NCBI GenBank assembly: GCA_045537965.1
Contig: JAZSQL010000034.1
Coordinates: forward strand, 1-59,106
DNA: 59,106 nucleotides
Origin: Alphaproteobacteria bacterium
GTDB taxonomy: Bacteria; Pseudomonadota; Alphaproteobacteria; RF32; CAG-239
Direction: 5' to 3'
A model generated the notes under the pieces. The model did no database searches. It was not told the origin of the DNA and was given only the letters and a program-made list of their open reading frames with translations. Made by a program: the position numbers and the translations under genes. Positions 7,916 through 59,106 of the stretch are shown in pieces (the first letter of the stretch is position 1; each line of letters starts with the position of its first letter).

Positions 7916-8252
7916 ATTTGCTCCTTTTTCTTCTTTACATAGGTATTTATCATTACAACTTGTAATTTTTTATTTTAGCAAATTCACTTATTTAACTGAT
8001 AAATACATGTGAAGTTAATAATTGCCTTTTACTTCATTAATATGTTTTTTAACAAATGAGTGCGATGGGAATTTCTATTGCACTTTTTTTGTTTTAAGTG
8101 AGTTAAATCCCTTTGATTTCCTTATGCTTGCTATTTTAATCAAAACAAATTTTGCTATTATAATAGCTATTTTATTTCTATTATAATTATATTATAGGAG
8201 CAAAAAACAGCTCTCAAGCCCTTGTGTATCAACAGTTTCAGCAAAGTGCGGC

Positions 8253-8396
8253 GGAAATATCTGTTTCCGTATAAGGAAATAACCGTTTCCGCATAAGGAA
8301 ATAACCGTTTCCGATAGTGGAAATATTCATTTCCATTTGGCGTTTTAGTGGAAATATTCATTTCCACTGAGGTTTTAGGTGGAAATATTCATTTCC
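8253..8396. repeat. Iteron-like array of six 16-bp palindromes GGAAAT-N4-RTTTCC
   Basis: Units start at 8253, 8275, 8297, 8319, 8350, 8381 (periods 22,22,22,31,31). Confidence 0.9.
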
Positions 8397-8477
8397 GGTA
8401 GCATTTTTTGTTAAAATTACAAAGTGTAAAATTTGCCGATAAATACTCATGTTAAAATACATATTAAAGGAATTAAA

Positions 8478-8624
8478 ATGAGTGAAAGACAAAGAAAGCT
8501 CACAATTACAGAGCGTTTAATTTTAACATATATCGGTTATAAAACCAATCGCAACTTCAAATTTTTTATGACAAACGAGACGCTGGCAAAGGCGATTTGC
8601 TGTAAAACTTCATCAACCAAAGTT
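8478..8624 (+). pseudogene. Truncated winged-HTH protein (paralog of 13221-13706)
   Basis: MSERQRKLTITERLILTYIGYKTNRNFKFFMTNETLAKAICCKTSSTKV matches copy 2, then similarity stops abruptly. Confidence 0.8.
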
Positions 8625-11492
8625 ATAAATTACACCGGCAGGCATATCTGGTGTTGCTTTTACAACAGCATTCATACCGGTCGGGTTCTTTTCTACATCA
8701 GGATTTTCTTTAATATATTCCAACAAATCCAAGCGAAATTCATTTAATCCCAAATCCATAATGGATATGCTTGAACCCATTTCTTCTATATCAACTACTT
8801 CGGTTTGCAACTTTTCAAGCTGTTGCTTACGATATGATAAATCTGGGTCGTCTTCCGGATTGATAACATTATCATTACCTCCTGCCGTTAAGTTTACAGC
8901 TTTCATTCTGCCTTCAACACGAGCTTTTAACTTGATATATTCATCTAATTCTACCGGAGCCCAGAAGTTTACAAGTTGGATTACTGTGTTTCTGCTTCCG
9001 ATACGGTCAATACGCCCGAAACGCTGGATAATGCGAACTGGGTTCCAATGGATATCATAGTTAATCAAGTAGTCGCAATCTTGTAGGTTTTGACCTTCGG
9101 AGATACAATCTGTTGCAATCAAAATATCAATGTTTGCAGGAATATCAGGCAATAACAAATGCTTTTCTTTTGATATTGGAGAAAAACAAGTCAAAACAGT
9201 ATTCATATCTTGCGGTAATTTGGCAATAGTGCTTTTACCTTCAACCGAACCACTGATTACAGCAGAATCTAAACCGAAGTTATCTTTTACATATTTTGAA
9301 ATATTGTCATATAAGTAGTTTGCAGTATCGGCAAAAGCTGTAAAGATTATAATTTTCTTGTTGTTATAATTGATTGGACGTTCAATCTTTTTCTTAATTT
9401 GCTCTTTTAAGGTTTGTAGCTTAAAGTCATCTTCAACCCCGATAGAGCTTGTTTCTTTATATAAATGTTCCAAAATATGAGCATCAGCTCTTAAATCTCG
9501 TTTCCAAGATTGATAATCCATATCTTTTAAGGATATGCTTATCTTGTTTCCGGTTGAAACATCATAATCGTCATCAAAGTCTTCAAATTCGCTAAAATCA
9601 TTGATTAGCTCATAATTGTTCTTTTTCTTTTCAAAAAGTTCAATGTTTTCAATAGTTCTGTTGATGCGTTCAATTATACGAGCCAATGTTTGGTTAAACG
9701 AATAAACAGAGCTTTCCATGCGTTTCATAAGGTTAATACTCATCAAACGACGAATACCTTGTTCACGGTCTGCTTGCTTGAAGAATACACCGTGGCTTAC
9801 ATCTCTTCCGTATTTTTCTTCATATTCATCACGTTTACTTTCGTAGATGTATGCTGATGGAGTGTAAACACATAAGGTTAATTGAAGTAAATCTGCAAAA
9901 ATCTCTTTATAGGATATTGTTCCTGCTTTTAAACTTAATTGCGGACGGTGATTAATTGGTAATAATCTGTCTGGGAATTTGCCAATATCCGAGGTATTAT
10001 AATATTTTTCAATATGTTTACGAGAACGAGCAATCGTTACACTATCAAGCAAATCAAAGAAATCAAAACTTAACATATTAAGCAAACGGCTTGCTGTTCT
10101 TTCTTCTATCGGTAGTTGATTCCAATGATTGTAGCTTCTTTGAGCTTCTCTAAATATTTGTTCTACATTTTTGCCTTCGCCCAGTTTTTCGTTTAATTGC
10201 TTTGCATTTCCTTCATAAGCAAGGGCAAGTTGGTTTTTCAAATCTATAAATTGATTGTTTACAGGTGTTGCAGAAAGCATTAAAACTTTGGTTCTTACAC
10301 CTTTTCTGATAACTTTGTTGAGCAATATATTATAGCGATTGTCTTTCTGTTCACCTTCATTGTCCAAATATGATTGACCACCGTTACGGAAGTTATGACT
10401 TTCATCAATAACCACTAAATCATAATTGCTCCAATTGATTTTGCCCAAATCAAGACCGTTTGATTTTCCTCTTACACGAGATAAATCTGTATGATAAAGA
10501 ACATCATAACGAAGTCTATCCGATGCAATCGGGTTATTTACATAGTTTTCTTTATAGGTTGTCCAGTTATCGCTTAACTTTTTAGGACATAGCACTAAAA
10601 CGTTTTTATTACGGTTTTCATAATATTTGATAACTGAAATTGCTGTAAATGTTTTACCAAGACCGACACTATCTGCTAAAATACAGCCATTGTATTTTTC
10701 CAGCTTATTAATAATGGCAAGACAAGCATCCTTTTGGAAGTTATAAAGTTTGTTCCAAATAGCACTTTCCTTAAATCCGGTAGCTGTGTTTGGCAAAACA
10801 TCTTCGTTAATATCATCCAAAAATTCATTAAAAATGTTAAAAAGTGTAAAGAAATAAACAAATTCCGGTGAATTTTCATTATAAACCGAGCTGATACTTT
10901 CAATAATTTCTTCTGTTACATCTTGTAATTGCTCTTTATCAGTCCAAAGTTCATTAAAGTGTTGAAGATATCCCTTACTCATAGGTGCTTCAAACTTATT
11001 GATGATACAAAAACAATTATTTCCTTTTTCACAACCTAAATCAACCGTTGTGAAGCCATTTACAGGATAATAAGCACAGCTTGTATTGTCTTCGTTTTCA
11101 ACATTAATAAGACCTGGAATTGTATGTCCTGTTTTGTTAGATTTGAAGCGAACTTTATTTTTAATCCATTCGGCACATTCTTTTGCAATAGCTTTTTGCG
11201 TTAGTTCATTACGAAGTTTTACTTCAAATTCTGTTCCATAGATGCTCTTTTCACGAGCCAGTCTTGGTATATAAAACTCTCTCTTTTCTTTTGGTGTCTT
11301 TTCGGTAATAAATGTCGGTGATGTAAAAATAAAGCGAAGTTCTTCAATATTTTCTAATTGCTTCTTTAATTCAGCAAAAGCATATATAGAAAAATATGCA
11401 GAAGCTATTGAAAGCTTTGCATTCTTCTTTATCTCAACGGTTAAATCATCTTTCAAAATAGATGATACGTTATCAAAGGCTTTAATCTCCAT
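8613..11492 (-). CDS. SNF2-family helicase with N-terminal PLD-like region, probably C-terminally truncated
   Basis: ADSVGLGKT (Walker A), DESHN, LSATP, ISEGQNLQ, QRFGRIDRIGS; ends at the junction with the truncated wHTH gene. Confidence 0.88.
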   Translation of the reverse strand: MEIKAFDNVSSILKDDLTVEIKKNAKLSIASAYFSIYAFAELKKQLENIEELRFIFTSPTFITEKTPKEKREFYIPRLAREKSIYGTEFEVKLRNELTQKAIAKECAEWIKNKVRFKSNKTGHTIPGLINVENEDNTSCAYYPVNGFTTVDLGCEKGNNCFCIINKFEAPMSKGYLQHFNELWTDKEQLQDVTEEIIESISSVYNENSPEFVYFFTLFNIFNEFLDDINEDVLPNTATGFKESAIWNKLYNFQKDACLAIINKLEKYNGCILADSVGLGKTFTAISVIKYYENRNKNVLVLCPKKLSDNWTTYKENYVNNPIASDRLRYDVLYHTDLSRVRGKSNGLDLGKINWSNYDLVVIDESHNFRNGGQSYLDNEGEQKDNRYNILLNKVIRKGVRTKVLMLSATPVNNQFIDLKNQLALAYEGNAKQLNEKLGEGKNVEQIFREAQRSYNHWNQLPIEERTASRLLNMLSFDFFDLLDSVTIARSRKHIEKYYNTSDIGKFPDRLLPINHRPQLSLKAGTISYKEIFADLLQLTLCVYTPSAYIYESKRDEYEEKYGRDVSHGVFFKQADREQGIRRLMSINLMKRMESSVYSFNQTLARIIERINRTIENIELFEKKKNNYELINDFSEFEDFDDDYDVSTGNKISISLKDMDYQSWKRDLRADAHILEHLYKETSSIGVEDDFKLQTLKEQIKKKIERPINYNNKKIIIFTAFADTANYLYDNISKYVKDNFGLDSAVISGSVEGKSTIAKLPQDMNTVLTCFSPISKEKHLLLPDIPANIDILIATDCISEGQNLQDCDYLINYDIHWNPVRIIQRFGRIDRIGSRNTVIQLVNFWAPVELDEYIKLKARVEGRMKAVNLTAGGNDNVINPEDDPDLSYRKQQLEKLQTEVVDIEEMGSSISIMDLGLNEFRLDLLEYIKENPDVEKNPTGMNAVVKATPDMPAGVIYNFG

Positions 11493-11654
11493 ATATCACC
11501 GTCTATATTATATACCAATCCACCATAAATAATACGGTTAAGATTTTCAAAAATCAATCTAAAAATCAAGCTATTATCAAGTATTTTCTAGGAGTTACAA
11601 AAGCACACAGTTTCATATAGTTACCTCTATTGACTAGACGGTGATATGTGGAGA
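11486..11654. promoter_or_regulatory. Promoter segment flanked by 20-bp inverted repeats (candidate invertible promoter)
   Basis: TCTCCATATATCACCGTCTA (11486-11505) vs TAGACGGTGATATGTGGAGA (11635-11654), 19/20; minus-strand TTGATT-N17-TATTAT and TGGTATAAT inside. Confidence 0.65.
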
Positions 11655-11735
11655 GTGTTTATTTTTAATACCAAATTCAACTAAAATCCTAGTAATTCCT
11701 ATAAATAGTTAAGTAAACTATTAAAGGAATTCATT

Positions 11736-12359
11736 ATGATTTATGGATATTGTAGAATCAGCACATCGCAACAAACTGTTCTTAACCAAAGGCACGAAAT
11801 ACAAGCTTTTGCCGAGAAAAACAATCTAAAAATTGATAAATGGCTTGATGAGGTCATTTCTTCCAGAAAACCTCTAAATGAGCGAAAACTAGGAAAATTA
11901 CTCAAAAAATTAAAAAAAGGCGATATCTTAATAGCTTCTGAGCTTTCTCGATTGGGAAGAAATCTGCTCGAAGTAATGGGAATTTTACAAAATTGCCTCG
12001 AAAAAGACTGTCAAATATGGACTTTGAAAGAAAATTATAGACTTGGAGCGGATATTCAATCAAAAGTTTTGGCTTTTGCCTTTTCCTTGGCTTCTGAAAT
12101 AGAACGTCAACTCATCTCTGAACGCACTAAAAATTCGCTTCAAAGGCTAAAAGATGAAGGAAAGCATTTGGGCAGACCATATGGTTTTACTTATAAAAAG
12201 CTTGAAAAAAAGCATAACAAAATAAAAGAATTGTTAGATAAAAATGTATCAAAATCAGAAATCGCAAGGCTTATGGGTTGTACTTGGGCTACTTTACATA
12301 GATATGTAAATGAGGCATTTCCTAATAAGGCATTACAAGATGTAATTTCAGAACCATAA
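11736..12359 (+). CDS. Serine recombinase, Mpi-like DNA invertase family
   Basis: MIYGYCRIST catalytic Ser, ELSRLGRN, IWTLKENYRLGADIQSKVLAFAF..EIERQLISERTK, GRP, C-terminal HTH. Confidence 0.9.
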   Translation: MIYGYCRISTSQQTVLNQRHEIQAFAEKNNLKIDKWLDEVISSRKPLNERKLGKLLKKLKKGDILIASELSRLGRNLLEVMGILQNCLEKDCQIWTLKENYRLGADIQSKVLAFAFSLASEIERQLISERTKNSLQRLKDEGKHLGRPYGFTYKKLEKKHNKIKELLDKNVSKSEIARLMGCTWATLHRYVNEAFPNKALQDVISEP

Positions 12360-12823
12360 TAAATCCGTCGTCTAATAGATATTTAGCGTTTTATATTGTC
12401 GCATTTTATTGTCTTTTATTCTGATTATGTTCCATATTGCGTGTGAAATGTTATAAAGTCAATTGTTTTATTAAATTTGCTAAGTGTAGATAACATCTAT
12501 GTTAAACAATATAGCCAAACTCAACAAAGTTTAACATTTTATATTTCAGCCTTAACAACACAAAAATAAAATACTAGTAAAATAGCCAATTACAGAGAAA
12601 ATGTTAAAAAATGTGTCTTCTTTAACATTTAAATATTTGTCAAATTTATATGAAGCTCTATCATATTTTTAATAAATTTAATCTGTTCTTTCATTTCTAA
12701 AATTTCCTCTCTGTGCTCTATAAAAAAGTTGATATTAATACTCAATTTTATAGTATTTTCACTATAACTTGACGCACCAATTTGGAGAGGGTTGGCAAAA
12801 TTTTTTGCTAACCCTACGTTTTG

Positions 12824-12969
12824 GATTCCTGCGAATAAGCCGATTATGACCGTTCATCAAAAAATGCTCCTGTGATACACCCCTGTGTTGCACCTGTAAA
12901 ATCAGCATTTTTTAGAAAAAAGCCAAAAAAATACCTAACACTTTCAGTATGTTAGTTAAAATTTGGCAG
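12824..12969 (+). repeat. Direct copy of tRNA-Trp-adjacent att arm (19494-19639)
   Basis: GATTCCTGCG..CGTTCA..AAAATGCTCCTGTGATACAC..AGCATTTTT..CCTAAC..GTTAG..TGGCAG collinear over 146 bp. Confidence 0.85.
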
Positions 12970-13220
12970 ACAGAATTGTAATAAATCAGAAAGAAAATCT
13001 GCTCAAATCTATAGTGTCTTTGTTAACCATTACAACGAAATATTGGCAATAAAAGACCAAGTTAAATTTACCAAAAATATGTTAGCAGCTTAATGTGATT
13101 TTTAAAGATGCAAAATCGCAGAAATCTAACAAAACTGCTAGATTTTTACGATTCTTCTATTGTTGTTTCTAAAAGTTTATTGATTCTTATATAAGTATCT
13201 AAGTAATAGTTTGTGTTGTC

Positions 13221-13706
13221 TTATATAAGATTATTTTTATTAAACATCCCTTCAATATCCTCCAAATCAATACCTTTTGATGCCAAAATGGACATCAGGG
13301 TTTCTAGTGCGTTTTTGTAGTTATCTCGTTCATTTTCTAAAGATTTAATACGGTTTTGAGCTTCTTTTAACTCGTTTTTATAATATTCGGCATCACGCTG
13401 ATAGTTCGTCAATTCTTGCAAGAGGTAGGTCTTTTCCACATTGCTCATGTTAACCCCGTCTAACGGACAAAATTTGCGTTCAGAGAGCGATAATTGTCTT
13501 CTGCCTCTATCATCACAGGTTTTTATCAAATACCCCTCACGGACGAGTTTATTTACCAAAACTTTTGTTGAAGCAACCGTGCAACAAATCGCCTCTGCCA
13601 AAGTCTCGTTATTCATAAAAAATTTGAAACCGTTATTTGTCTTTAAACCAATGTAAGTTAATATAAAACGCTAGGTAATTGAAAGCTCTGCTTTACTTCT
13701 ACTCAT
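13221..13706 (-). pseudogene. wHTH + coiled-coil protein with in-frame TAG at codon 12
   Basis: AAGGAG RBS, MSRSKAELSIT*RFILTYIGLKTNNGFKFFMNNETLAEAICC...; TAG (13671-13673) aligns to GAG in copy 1. Confidence 0.8.
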
Positions 13707-13785
13707 ATTTTCTCCTTAATATATTTTTTTAACATGAGTATTTATCGGCAGATTTTACATTTTGTAATTTTAACAAAAATAGCGG

Positions 13786-13897
13786 CGAAATATATATTTC
13801 CGGTAGGAAAATGTATATTTCCGCTAAAACCCCGAATGGAAATGTATATTTCCACTGGTGGAAATGGTTATTTCCGTAAGTGGAAACGTATATTTCC
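13786..13897. repeat. Iteron-like array, five units (copy 2)
   Basis: Units near 13786, 13807, 13838, 13860, 13882, consensus GGAAAY-N4-ATTTCC (first two units degenerate at the 5' end). Confidence 0.88.
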
Positions 13898-14228
13898 GCC
13901 GCACTTTGCTGAAACTGTTGATACACAAGGCTTTGAGAACAGTTTTTTGCTCCTATAATAGTATTATAATATAATTAAAATAGCTATTATAATAGGCAAT
14001 TTTTTGTTTTGATTAAAATAGCAAACCAAAGGAATTGTAATTACTTAATATAAAATATGGATGTGATTTAATTCCCAGGAATTAAAAAGAAATCAGAAAC
14101 GGGCGATGTGGATTTCATAACAAAAAAAGAGCTGTAGGAAATTACTACAGCTCCAATTTGTTAAAAAACATATTAGTGTGAAGTAAGGCAATATTAACTT
14201 CACATATATTTATTTCAAAACAAACATA

Positions 14229-58017: not shown

Positions 58018-58617
58018 ATGATAAATTGGTTCAACAATCTAGTTCAAAGAACTTATGACATTATGCTATCTCTCTCAGCAAAGCCCAATGCTATGGCTTT
58101 TTTATTCATTGTCGCTTTTGCTGAAAGTTCTTTTTTTCCCATACCACCAGATGTCATGTTAATACCAATGATACTAGCGACCCCCAACAAAGCTTGGCAA
58201 ATAGCTGGGATAGCAACTATTGCTAGCGTTTTAGGTGGATATTTTGGCTATGGAATTGGTGTTTTTGCCTTTGACATGATTGCCAAACCTATTCTTGAAT
58301 TTTACAATGCTTTAGAACAATTTCATCAATTTGAAAATTATTATCACCAATATGGTGCTTGGATTGTTTTTGGTGCTGGTATAACTCCCTTTCCATACAA
58401 AATAATAACCATTGCTAGTGGCGTTGTTCATCTAGATTTAGTAGTATTTACAGTTGCCAGTATCCTCGCCCGAGGAATGCGCTTTTTCCTTGTTGCTTGG
58501 TTGCTAAAAAAATATGGTGAACCAATGAAGGCATTTATTGAAAAACATCTTGGAATACTTTCTATTTTGTTTTTAATCTTACTGATAGGTGGTTTTGCCC
58601 TAATTAAATACTTCTAA
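58018..58617 (+). CDS. DedA/YqaA family membrane protein
   Basis: AESSFFPIPPD, SVLGG..GY, TPFPYK, RG.RF. Confidence 0.92.
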   Translation: MINWFNNLVQRTYDIMLSLSAKPNAMAFLFIVAFAESSFFPIPPDVMLIPMILATPNKAWQIAGIATIASVLGGYFGYGIGVFAFDMIAKPILEFYNALEQFHQFENYYHQYGAWIVFGAGITPFPYKIITIASGVVHLDLVVFTVASILARGMRFFLVAWLLKKYGEPMKAFIEKHLGILSILFLILLIGGFALIKYF

Positions 58618-58805
58618 AAACACGACTATTTTAGCATTGGATGATAAATTAAGAGTGACAATAATGGGGCTCGTTTCACTTACTCAAAGTGTGACTGTGC
58701 TAAGGAGATTCTTCAATTAAAAAGCTTGGAATAACTTTATTTATTCAAACGGTAACTTTGATTATATTTCATTGATAATATTTTGTAAAAACAGATGGTT
58801 ACCAA

Positions 58806-59004
58806 CCTAAAACCTTGCAAAAAACTGAACAGTTTTTTTCAATATATATTTTAATTATATAGCAAAAAAAGTAAAAAAGCAATTAACTTGTTTTTATTAC
58901 ATGTTTTCAATGTGTTATATTCTTTTTATTTTTTTTATTTTCACTTTAAATATTCGTTCAAAAAACCTTGAAAAAAACTGTTCAGTTTTTTGCAAGGTTT
59001 TAGG
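58806..59004. promoter_or_regulatory. Candidate invertible promoter: perfect 37-bp inverted repeats
   Basis: 58806-58842 is the exact reverse complement of 58968-59004; minus-strand TTGCTT-N17-TATAAT at 58882-58854. Confidence 0.8.
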
Positions 59005-59034
59005 GATAGGTTTAGATATAAAGGAGATAAGGTT

Positions 59035-59106
59035 ATGAAAAAATATTTGCTTTTAGGTACTAGTTTAATTGTAGCTTCTTCGGCTTATGCTATTACGTGT
59101 GAACAA
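59035..59106 (+). CDS. Secreted protein, 5' partial
   Basis: AAGGAG RBS; MKKYLLLGTSLIVASSAYA|ITCEQ signal peptide; runs off window. Confidence 0.8.
   Translation, partial: MKKYLLLGTSLIVASSAYAITCEQ

Follow-up and report, generated by a model that had tools for sequence, protein, structure and literature searches.

We analysed a 59,106-nucleotide (nt) stretch of DNA from an alphaproteobacterium (GTDB lineage RF32, CAG-239; contig JAZSQL010000034.1 of assembly GCA_045537965.1), hereafter called the window, and found at its right end a 199-bp unit, positions 58806-59004, in which a promoter-bearing segment lies between two perfect inverted copies of a 37-nt repeat, ahead of a gene for a secreted protein. 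We propose that this unit is probably a site-specific inversion switch for that gene, operated in trans by a recombinase of the Mpi family and currently in the OFF state. The window corresponds to contig C4 of a genome of 1,583,875 bp (G000), the 58 contigs of which are numbered C1-C58 here. The genome carries about 20 such cassettes in 1.58 Mb, about six of one site class (class A, that of the window) and about 14 of a second (class B), and homologous cassettes are found in both orientations in related genomes.

The inverted repeat, its promoter and the downstream gene

The unit and its surroundings contain the following features, from left to right.

58618-58805, no strand: left flank (L flank), non-coding, between an upstream open reading frame (ORF) of 215 amino acids that ends at 58617 and the left repeat; part of the repeated unit
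58806-58842, no strand: left arm of the inverted repeat, with a dyad at 58815-58842 and the proposed crossover dinucleotide AA at 58828-58829
58843-58967, no strand: putative class A promoter cassette, the 125-nt invertible segment, assigned by its likeness to other cassettes
58854-58882, minus strand: predicted promoter, with TTGCTT at 58882-58877, a 17-nt spacer and TATAAT at 58859-58854, directed leftward, away from the ORF
58968-59004, no strand: right arm of the inverted repeat, with a dyad at 58962-59001 and the centre TT at 58981-58982
59005-59034, plus strand: leader (R flank) with the ribosome-binding site AAGGAG at 59021-59026, conserved and common to the paralogs
59035-59106, plus strand: start of a secreted cysteine-rich protein, with ATG at 59035, 30 nt beyond the right arm, and a signal peptide ending in AYA

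The two 37-nt arms are 100% complementary and are separated by 125 nt. The next longest perfect inverted repeat in the whole window, with gaps of 20-300 nt allowed, had arms of only 13 nt, and 100 rounds of first-order shuffling gave longest arms of 12.9 nt on average and 17 nt at most; the 37-nt repeat is therefore beyond chance. Each arm carries a dyad of its own. The left dyad, TTGCAAAAAACTG-AA-CAGTTTTTTTCAA, has half-sites at 58815-58827 and 58830-58842; the right dyad, with half-sites at 58962-58980 and 58983-59001, is otherwise the same and has TT in its centre. Inverted dyads with an asymmetric 2-nt centre, a trait of Hin/Gin-type sites, were thus found in class A as AA and TT, and the class B sites have the same two centres. 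The perfect repeats, the AA- and TT-centred dyads and a promoter motif facing away from the ribosome-binding site and signal-peptide ORF had all been described in a preliminary annotation (the original prediction), and each of these descriptions agreed with our analysis.

The standing of TTGCTT-N17-TATAAT as the promoter of the family derives from comparison across species and not from the Escherichia coli consensus. The motif is kept with identical spacing in the class B cassettes, where the -10 box reads TATACT, and in the relatives G042, G018 and G004. Since it faces the gene in all eight loci in which it lies outside the repeats (six in G018 and two in G004), we regard it as the promoter of the family and, as judged from sequence, the window copy as being in the OFF orientation.

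The ORF that starts at 59035 begins with MKKYLLLGTSLIVASSAYA, leaves the window, and continues on C57:70-843 through a contig overlap of 141 nt, giving a protein of 258 amino acids in total (P0001). Overlaps of this length suggest that the assembler used a word size of 141. The match of P0001 to the Pfam family Lcl_C was weak, lying just under the cut-off (E 1.2e-7; 32.5 bits against 34.9). The sequence around the start of the gene is repeated in the genome: 59016-59091, comprising the ribosome-binding site and the beginning of the ORF, has further copies, 97-99% identical, on C17, C25, C35, C44, C56 and C57. On the other side, 58702-58935, which covers part of the left flank and part of the cassette, is 97% identical to C20:30073-30306, and the final 30 nt or so of the left flank reappear ahead of class A cassettes on C6 and C38.

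Two further features of the left flank were observed. A minus-strand TTTACA-17-TATAAT motif (11/12 matches) at 58761-58789, likewise directed leftward, is present in the corresponding flank on C20 and absent from the other flanks; it may be a chance occurrence in AT-rich DNA. A repeat of about 40 nt (…CTTAGCA.AGT.ACA.TTTGAG.AAGTG.AAC…) occurs in either orientation in left flanks, namely at 58666-58712 in the window, at C6:13380-13450 and at C38:4040-4080. The window copy of this repeat had no match in Rfam, and the left flank as a whole gave a single Rfam match at chance level (E 0.19), far under the gathering score.

Related cassettes and candidate recombinases

A 20-nt core of the site occurred in 13 copies in the genome, as compared with none for a reversed-pattern control. 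After contig overlaps were taken into account, these gave six class A cassettes, located on C4 (the window), C6, C20, C38 (two) and C49 together with C15; a variant single class A site lies on C14 ahead of a cysteine-rich ORF of 682 amino acids. Identity to the window cassette is 96-98% for those on C6, C38 and C49 and for the partial copies on C20 and C15; the second C38 copy matches the window at 92% over a stretch that includes part of the left flank. The class B cassettes are bounded by AAACCAACGTTTTTGTAGAGGC and its complement, with a right-site dyad reading CCTCTACAAAAACG-TT-GGTTTTTGTAGAGG, and the core of their segment is homologous to that of class A. Matches to the promoter core were distributed over 18 contigs, seven of them belonging to class A (six loci after overlaps) and 14 to class B, and class B left junctions numbered 16.

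Most of the cassettes precede genes of one family, whose cysteine-rich secreted products end in an Lcl_C-like part. In leader and signal peptide these genes are nearly letter-identical, and they diverge thereafter. P0001 had 41 matches in its own genome, and the family was present in 49 of the 55 other genomes of the genus. Its members have a cysteine-rich N-terminal part and a C-terminal part that matched Lcl_C in 8 of 14 aligned members (best E 1.7e-10). No significant solved relative of P0001 was found by sequence, and the family profile gave one weak match, to 4eps (E 4.7e-4). Most contig ends of the assembly lie in the cassettes or in the genes behind them, which accounts for the fragmentation of this metagenome-assembled genome. 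An 18-nt class A site core was found in none of the 55 other genomes of the genus, a DNA search of 40 relatives gave nothing beyond short site-like matches, and exact-pattern scans of metagenome contigs for the class A junction and the class B right dyad gave no matches.

The architecture of the cassettes is shared more widely. In G042, all 12 family loci that were fetched have a segment of equal length between TATAGCATTTAAACC-AC-CGTTTAAATGCTATA dyads, with 48-50 nt from the site to the ATG, and the cassette cores are homologous to that of the window. The segment faces away from the gene in 10 of these loci and towards it in two (L122 and L127), the flanks being unchanged and the segments aligning only as reverse complements; the comparison is one between paralogous loci and not within a population. 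In G018, a 65-nt module between TGTTGCAAAAAAAGG-NN-CCTTTTTTTGCAACA dyads was found in one orientation in four loci and inverted in two, and of three loci with a 120-nt promoter module, two have it directed away from the adjacent gene and the third has it between two divergent paralogs. Site sequences thus differ across species while the architecture is kept, which looks like binding sites co-evolving with their recombinase.

We next describe the recombinases. Twelve resolvase-domain matches were found in the genome, and five of these are intact ORFs of 195-215 amino acids with 55-87% mutual identity. All five matched the NCBIfam model NF009949, 'master DNA invertase Mpi family' (E 2e-80 to 6e-88; cut-off 272 bits): the scores were 293.9 for the C44 paralog, 275.5 for the gene at 11736 in the window and 272.5 for that on C57, with those on C14 (269.3) and C51 (269.2) just below the cut-off. 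Among solved structures, the Gin DNA invertase is the closest to them (4m6f, E 2.1e-13). At E <= 1e-20, Mpi-type genes were also present in 42 of the 55 other genomes of the genus. A search for related loci in genome contigs gave a single metagenome-assembled genome, of Bacteroidales. The member within the window is as follows.

11736-12359, plus strand: Mpi-family small serine recombinase of 207 amino acids (Pfam Resolvase, E 1.2e-30; HTH_7; NF009949 at 275.5 bits), a possible trans-acting invertase

The original prediction had stated that no recombinase adjoins the unit on its left. This was borne out, as the 47 kb on the left of the window cassette and the 6 kb on its right (the first 6 kb of C57) contain no recombinase, the gene at 11736 being the nearest of the resolvase family. 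More generally, no recombinase gene adjoins a cassette and no class A or class B site lies beside any recombinase gene. The proposal of a trans-acting promoter-inversion system for secreted proteins, with further site pairs ahead of paralogous genes, is likewise supported by the 13 class A sites, the approximately 14 class B cassettes, the paralogs downstream of them and the two orientations seen in relatives; at the window locus itself, inversion would follow by analogy. As for the suggestion that the gene at 11736 is a candidate invertase, its score above the NF009949 cut-off agrees with it, but this gene is not the best candidate; it has an inverted repeat of its own (20 nt, 95%; 11486-11505 and 11635-11654, 129 nt apart), which lies between the gene and a divergent ORF of 959 amino acids. 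The C44 paralog appears to be a better candidate on sequence grounds, because its neighbourhood is conserved, the gene adjoining an autotransporter gene in all four genomes examined (G000, G042, G018 and G004), and because G018, a genome with many sites, has no Mpi-type match other than the counterpart of this paralog.

Several observations were made on the surroundings of the recombinase genes. Long imperfect inverted repeats (8118-8624 and 13560-14034, 76-91% complementary) bound a 5.9-kb region of the window, 8118-14034, and enclose the 959-amino-acid ORF, the Mpi-family gene at 11736 and an ORF of 131 amino acids; this region may represent a local switch in its own right, or else a mobile unit. 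Two of the Mpi-family genes each have a divergent, weakly resolvase-like ORF as their head-to-head neighbour, at C57:71693-72337 (E 7.7e-6) and C51:2488-3084 (E 1.2e-4). The recombinase at C44:21780-22376 is 100% identical to the Mpi-type recombinase of G042 at C1:159946-160551, and the neighbouring ORFs are nearly so; the cassette sites of G000 and G042 have just one half-site in common, GCGTTTAAACC or GCATTTAAACC.

Other observations concern the cassettes. The class A cassette at C49:4848-5023, joined with C15:1-145, lies 215 nt upstream of mraZ-rsmH with its promoter directed towards mraZ. In six loci of G018 (L091, L093, L094, L095, L096 and L084) and two of G004 (L086 and L088), a promoter-less two-dyad module of 65-77 nt stands downstream of a fixed promoter. 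In one orientation of this module the first dyad forms a hairpin (-23.7 kcal/mol) that is followed by CUUUUUU, and the flipped loci have no U tract; the module may be an invertible terminator. Some dyads in G018 (L084, L092 and L095) have the palindromic centre GGATCC and are thus directionless, others having AA, TT or GT; for a serine recombinase, a symmetric centre would permit deletion besides inversion. Solitary class-A-like dyads lie beside small ORFs near a tRNA/tmRNA-like stretch in G018 (C22, about 1522; L032) and in G004 (C3, about 1510; L033).

Orientation of the cassettes and rival explanations

The mechanism that we propose is as follows. Two recombinase-binding dyads in opposite orientation, AA versus TT, would flank the 125-bp segment that contains the only recognisable promoter for the gene. 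A small Mpi-family serine invertase encoded elsewhere would bind both dyads, cut at the central dinucleotide and rotate the segment. In the assembled orientation the promoter would fire into the non-coding left flank, leaving the secreted-protein gene OFF; after inversion, transcription from it would cross the right dyad and the leader to reach the gene, which would then be ON. One such mechanism could serve the approximately 20 cassettes of both site classes ahead of the large paralogous family of cysteine-rich, Lcl_C-like proteins, so that a cell population would display varying subsets of these secreted proteins. We infer in particular that the window copy continues to invert, that AA/TT is the cut site, that recombinase paralogs pair with site classes and that the orientation affects expression.

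Two junctions bear on the ON state in this species. At C38:120, on the minus strand, a paralog starts whose leader adjoins the promoter end of a class A cassette, as compared with six other gene starts that have the far end there; since the contig was built from 141-nt words, this ON junction existed in the reads. The second comes from public data, which comprised 24 sequencing runs from nine studies, 20 of them containing part of the stretch and none listed as RNA, in the form of Logan contigs built from 31-nt words (k=31). In two runs, X2 and X6, a piece on C49 ends at position 104 and is followed by 42 nt of R flank instead of L flank. Position C49:104 is the last base of a class B repeat, beside the promoter end, and in G000 the R flank always follows the far end of the cassette; an ordinary OFF junction could not reach 30 nt at 90% likeness. 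The piece is therefore likely, as read from the sequence, to be the predicted class B ON junction. In another run, X4, the left-flank contig ends at C49:4867, one base before the position that tells the orientation; this fits a mixed population or a strain mixture, and was not counted.

A number of observations weigh against an inversion switch at 58806-59004. All 16 class B left junctions and all four class A L-type junctions in the assembly are of the OFF type, and at the seven family gene starts for which the whole cassette is visible, the cassette faces away from the gene in six cases, that of the window included, and towards it in one. Such OFF-heavy junctions fit a strongly OFF-biased switch but also fit a fixed arrangement. 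The perfect 37-nt repeat conceals the orientation of the window locus from k=31 contigs. The C49 cassette beside mraZ, with a perfect repeat of only 20 nt and unique flanks, is the sole class A locus that can be resolved in this way, and was used for mapping in four runs from four studies; no strand-changing joint was found in any of the four, and two of them (X2 and X6) lacked the cassette at C49. The aligned length of the putative ON piece of X2 and X6, probably at least 30 nt, is an estimate based on the shortest pieces. The ON junction on C38 lies within C38:1-497, an 85% palindrome that starts at the first base of the contig and in which the 5' ends of two paralogs are opposed, with a single class A cassette between them; this arrangement could be a toggle for two genes, or the assembly may have joined two loci into one path.

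Points of the same kind concern the promoter and the enzyme. The motif had originally been called near-consensus; its sequence, spacing and strand were confirmed, but its -35 hexamer TTGCTT matches TTGACA, the E. coli consensus, at only three of six positions. For this reason the motif is missing from a consensus scan of 58400-59106, which returned three promoter-like sites as compared with 3.5 +/- 2.0 in shuffles, that is, no enrichment; all three are on the minus strand, with none on the plus strand. No terminator-like site was predicted between the upstream ORF and the gene, and read-through could therefore give some expression in the OFF state; simple scans of the flanks for terminators gave no firm result otherwise. 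In three genomes of the genus, G043, G064 and G058, which have 47, 19 and 16 matches to the protein family, no Mpi-type match was found at E <= 1e-20. At seven family gene starts in 18 stretches from G043 and G064, no inverted repeat of at least 12 nt and no promoter motif was found upstream, which is a weak control, as tandem arrays make the upstream sequence coding.

The junction counts, together with the C49 runs, are what would be expected if the window copy, or every copy in the species, were a fossil that no longer inverts, the gene being silent or expressed by read-through. We consider this unlikely. The repeat is perfect over 37 nt although the cassette copies differ by 2-4%, whereas decay would have brought mismatches into the site; the genome has kept all five Mpi-family genes intact; and the ON junction on C38 and the predicted class B ON junction in two runs both speak for inversion.

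The variation at C49 raises a different explanation, in which the unit is a mobile promoter cassette, similar to a miniature inverted-repeat transposable element or spread by recombination, with terminal repeats that serve its spread and with no programmed inversion as its function. On a 27-kb contig of X2 and a 5-kb contig of X6, C49:4874 passes directly into the C15 flank, leaving a single dyad ahead of mraZ where G000 has dyad, cassette and dyad. The join falls in the 6 nt CAATAT common to the inner and outer half-sites, and both gain and loss of the cassette are therefore possible at mraZ. The copies are indeed dispersed, as mobility would have it, and terminal inverted repeats are present; however, the flanks of the six class A loci show no direct target duplication, which the original prediction had named as the companion of dispersal in a mobile element. 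The dyad centres, AA versus TT, mark the two sites as inverted and not direct copies, and the C49/C15 cassette occupies a dyad that was already there. Except at mraZ, moreover, cassettes are always paired with the same left flank and gene leader, which has the look of a duplicated gene family, and transposition leaves unexplained the exact inversions with unchanged flanks in G042. Spread of a mobile cassette thus seems to us a very unlikely account of the unit.

It is still more improbable that the palindromes are operators or terminator hairpins of a fixed regulatory region, with the inverted repeat as a by-product of identical binding sites: each arm is a foldable palindrome, the right arm folding at -16.1 kcal/mol (z -2.9), and a scan called the G042 sites terminator-like, but the left arm folds no better than shuffles (z -0.6), and this reading explains neither the segments found in both orientations, nor the opposite centre dinucleotides, nor a promoter that faces away from the only nearby gene.

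The inversion switch is thus the explanation that we prefer. A broader version of it is conceivable though doubtful, namely that cassettes are both flipped and redistributed, with solitary dyads as landing pads where a cassette may come or go, as ahead of mraZ, and as parts of a genus-wide kit of invertible promoters and terminators, diversifying Mpi-like invertases and sites that vary among species. If true, redistribution by such a kit could change the set of phase-variable genes and bring even housekeeping operons into it.

Comparison with known inversion systems

The literature that we consulted on invertons, including PMC11602134, yielded no description of invertible promoters in this lineage or of phase variation of DUF1566/Lcl_C proteins, though supplementary tables of inverton surveys could include such loci. 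With the Hin/hix, Gin/gix and Cin/cix systems, the present one shares small serine recombinases with a C-terminal helix-turn-helix, Gin being the best solved relative, and inverted dyads composed of two A-tract half-sites around an asymmetric 2-nt centre. The hix and gix sites have this same dyad design in common. In the Hin, Gin and Cin systems, the invertase gene lies inside or beside its one segment, and a Fis-bound enhancer is required. Here, in contrast, there are many segments, and no recombinase stands beside any cassette where the available flank sufficed to judge.

The cwpV switch of Clostridioides difficile has its promoter outside the invertible segment, forms a terminator in one orientation, and is served by a tyrosine-type recombinase. 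Only the 65-77-nt modules of G018 and G004 resemble it, with their fixed promoter and a dyad hairpin with a U tract in one orientation; the switch in the window differs in having the promoter inside the segment.

In gut Bacteroides, the inversion of promoters on a global scale by one master serine invertase is textbook knowledge, and to our knowledge it is little documented outside them. The cassettes described here very probably represent the Mpi kind of global promoter inversion, new in a different host, where it controls a family of secreted proteins. The same recombinase family and the same logic would then operate in an unrelated, uncultured, small-genome bacterium of the animal gut, acting on secreted proteins instead of capsules, through about 20 switches in 1.6 Mb. 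If so, gut bacteria exposed to immunity and phages would have converged on phase variation of the proteins that they secrete or carry at their surface. The invertases are related to one another but their sites differ (those of class A and class B and the variants of G042, G018 and G004), which also makes them potential orthogonal recombinase-site pairs.

Mpi of Bacteroides fragilis is described in PMC4747536 and PMC10403206 as a serine recombinase that inverts 13 regions in trans, including seven polysaccharide promoters. The present system resembles it in that its recombinases match the NCBIfam equivalog model for Mpi and in that many unlinked promoter segments with inverted repeats occur per genome with no recombinase adjoining. 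This likeness is one of recombinase family and layout. The differences lie in the host, which here has a sigma-70-type -10 box, strong Shine-Dalgarno sequences and autotransporters; in the recombinases, the closest one found in Bacteroidales being 49-60% identical to those compared (49-53% to the five of G000); in the targets, which here are single genes of one secreted-protein family and not capsule operons; and in the scale, with about 20 switches in 1.58 Mb, two site classes and five recombinase paralogs in this genome.

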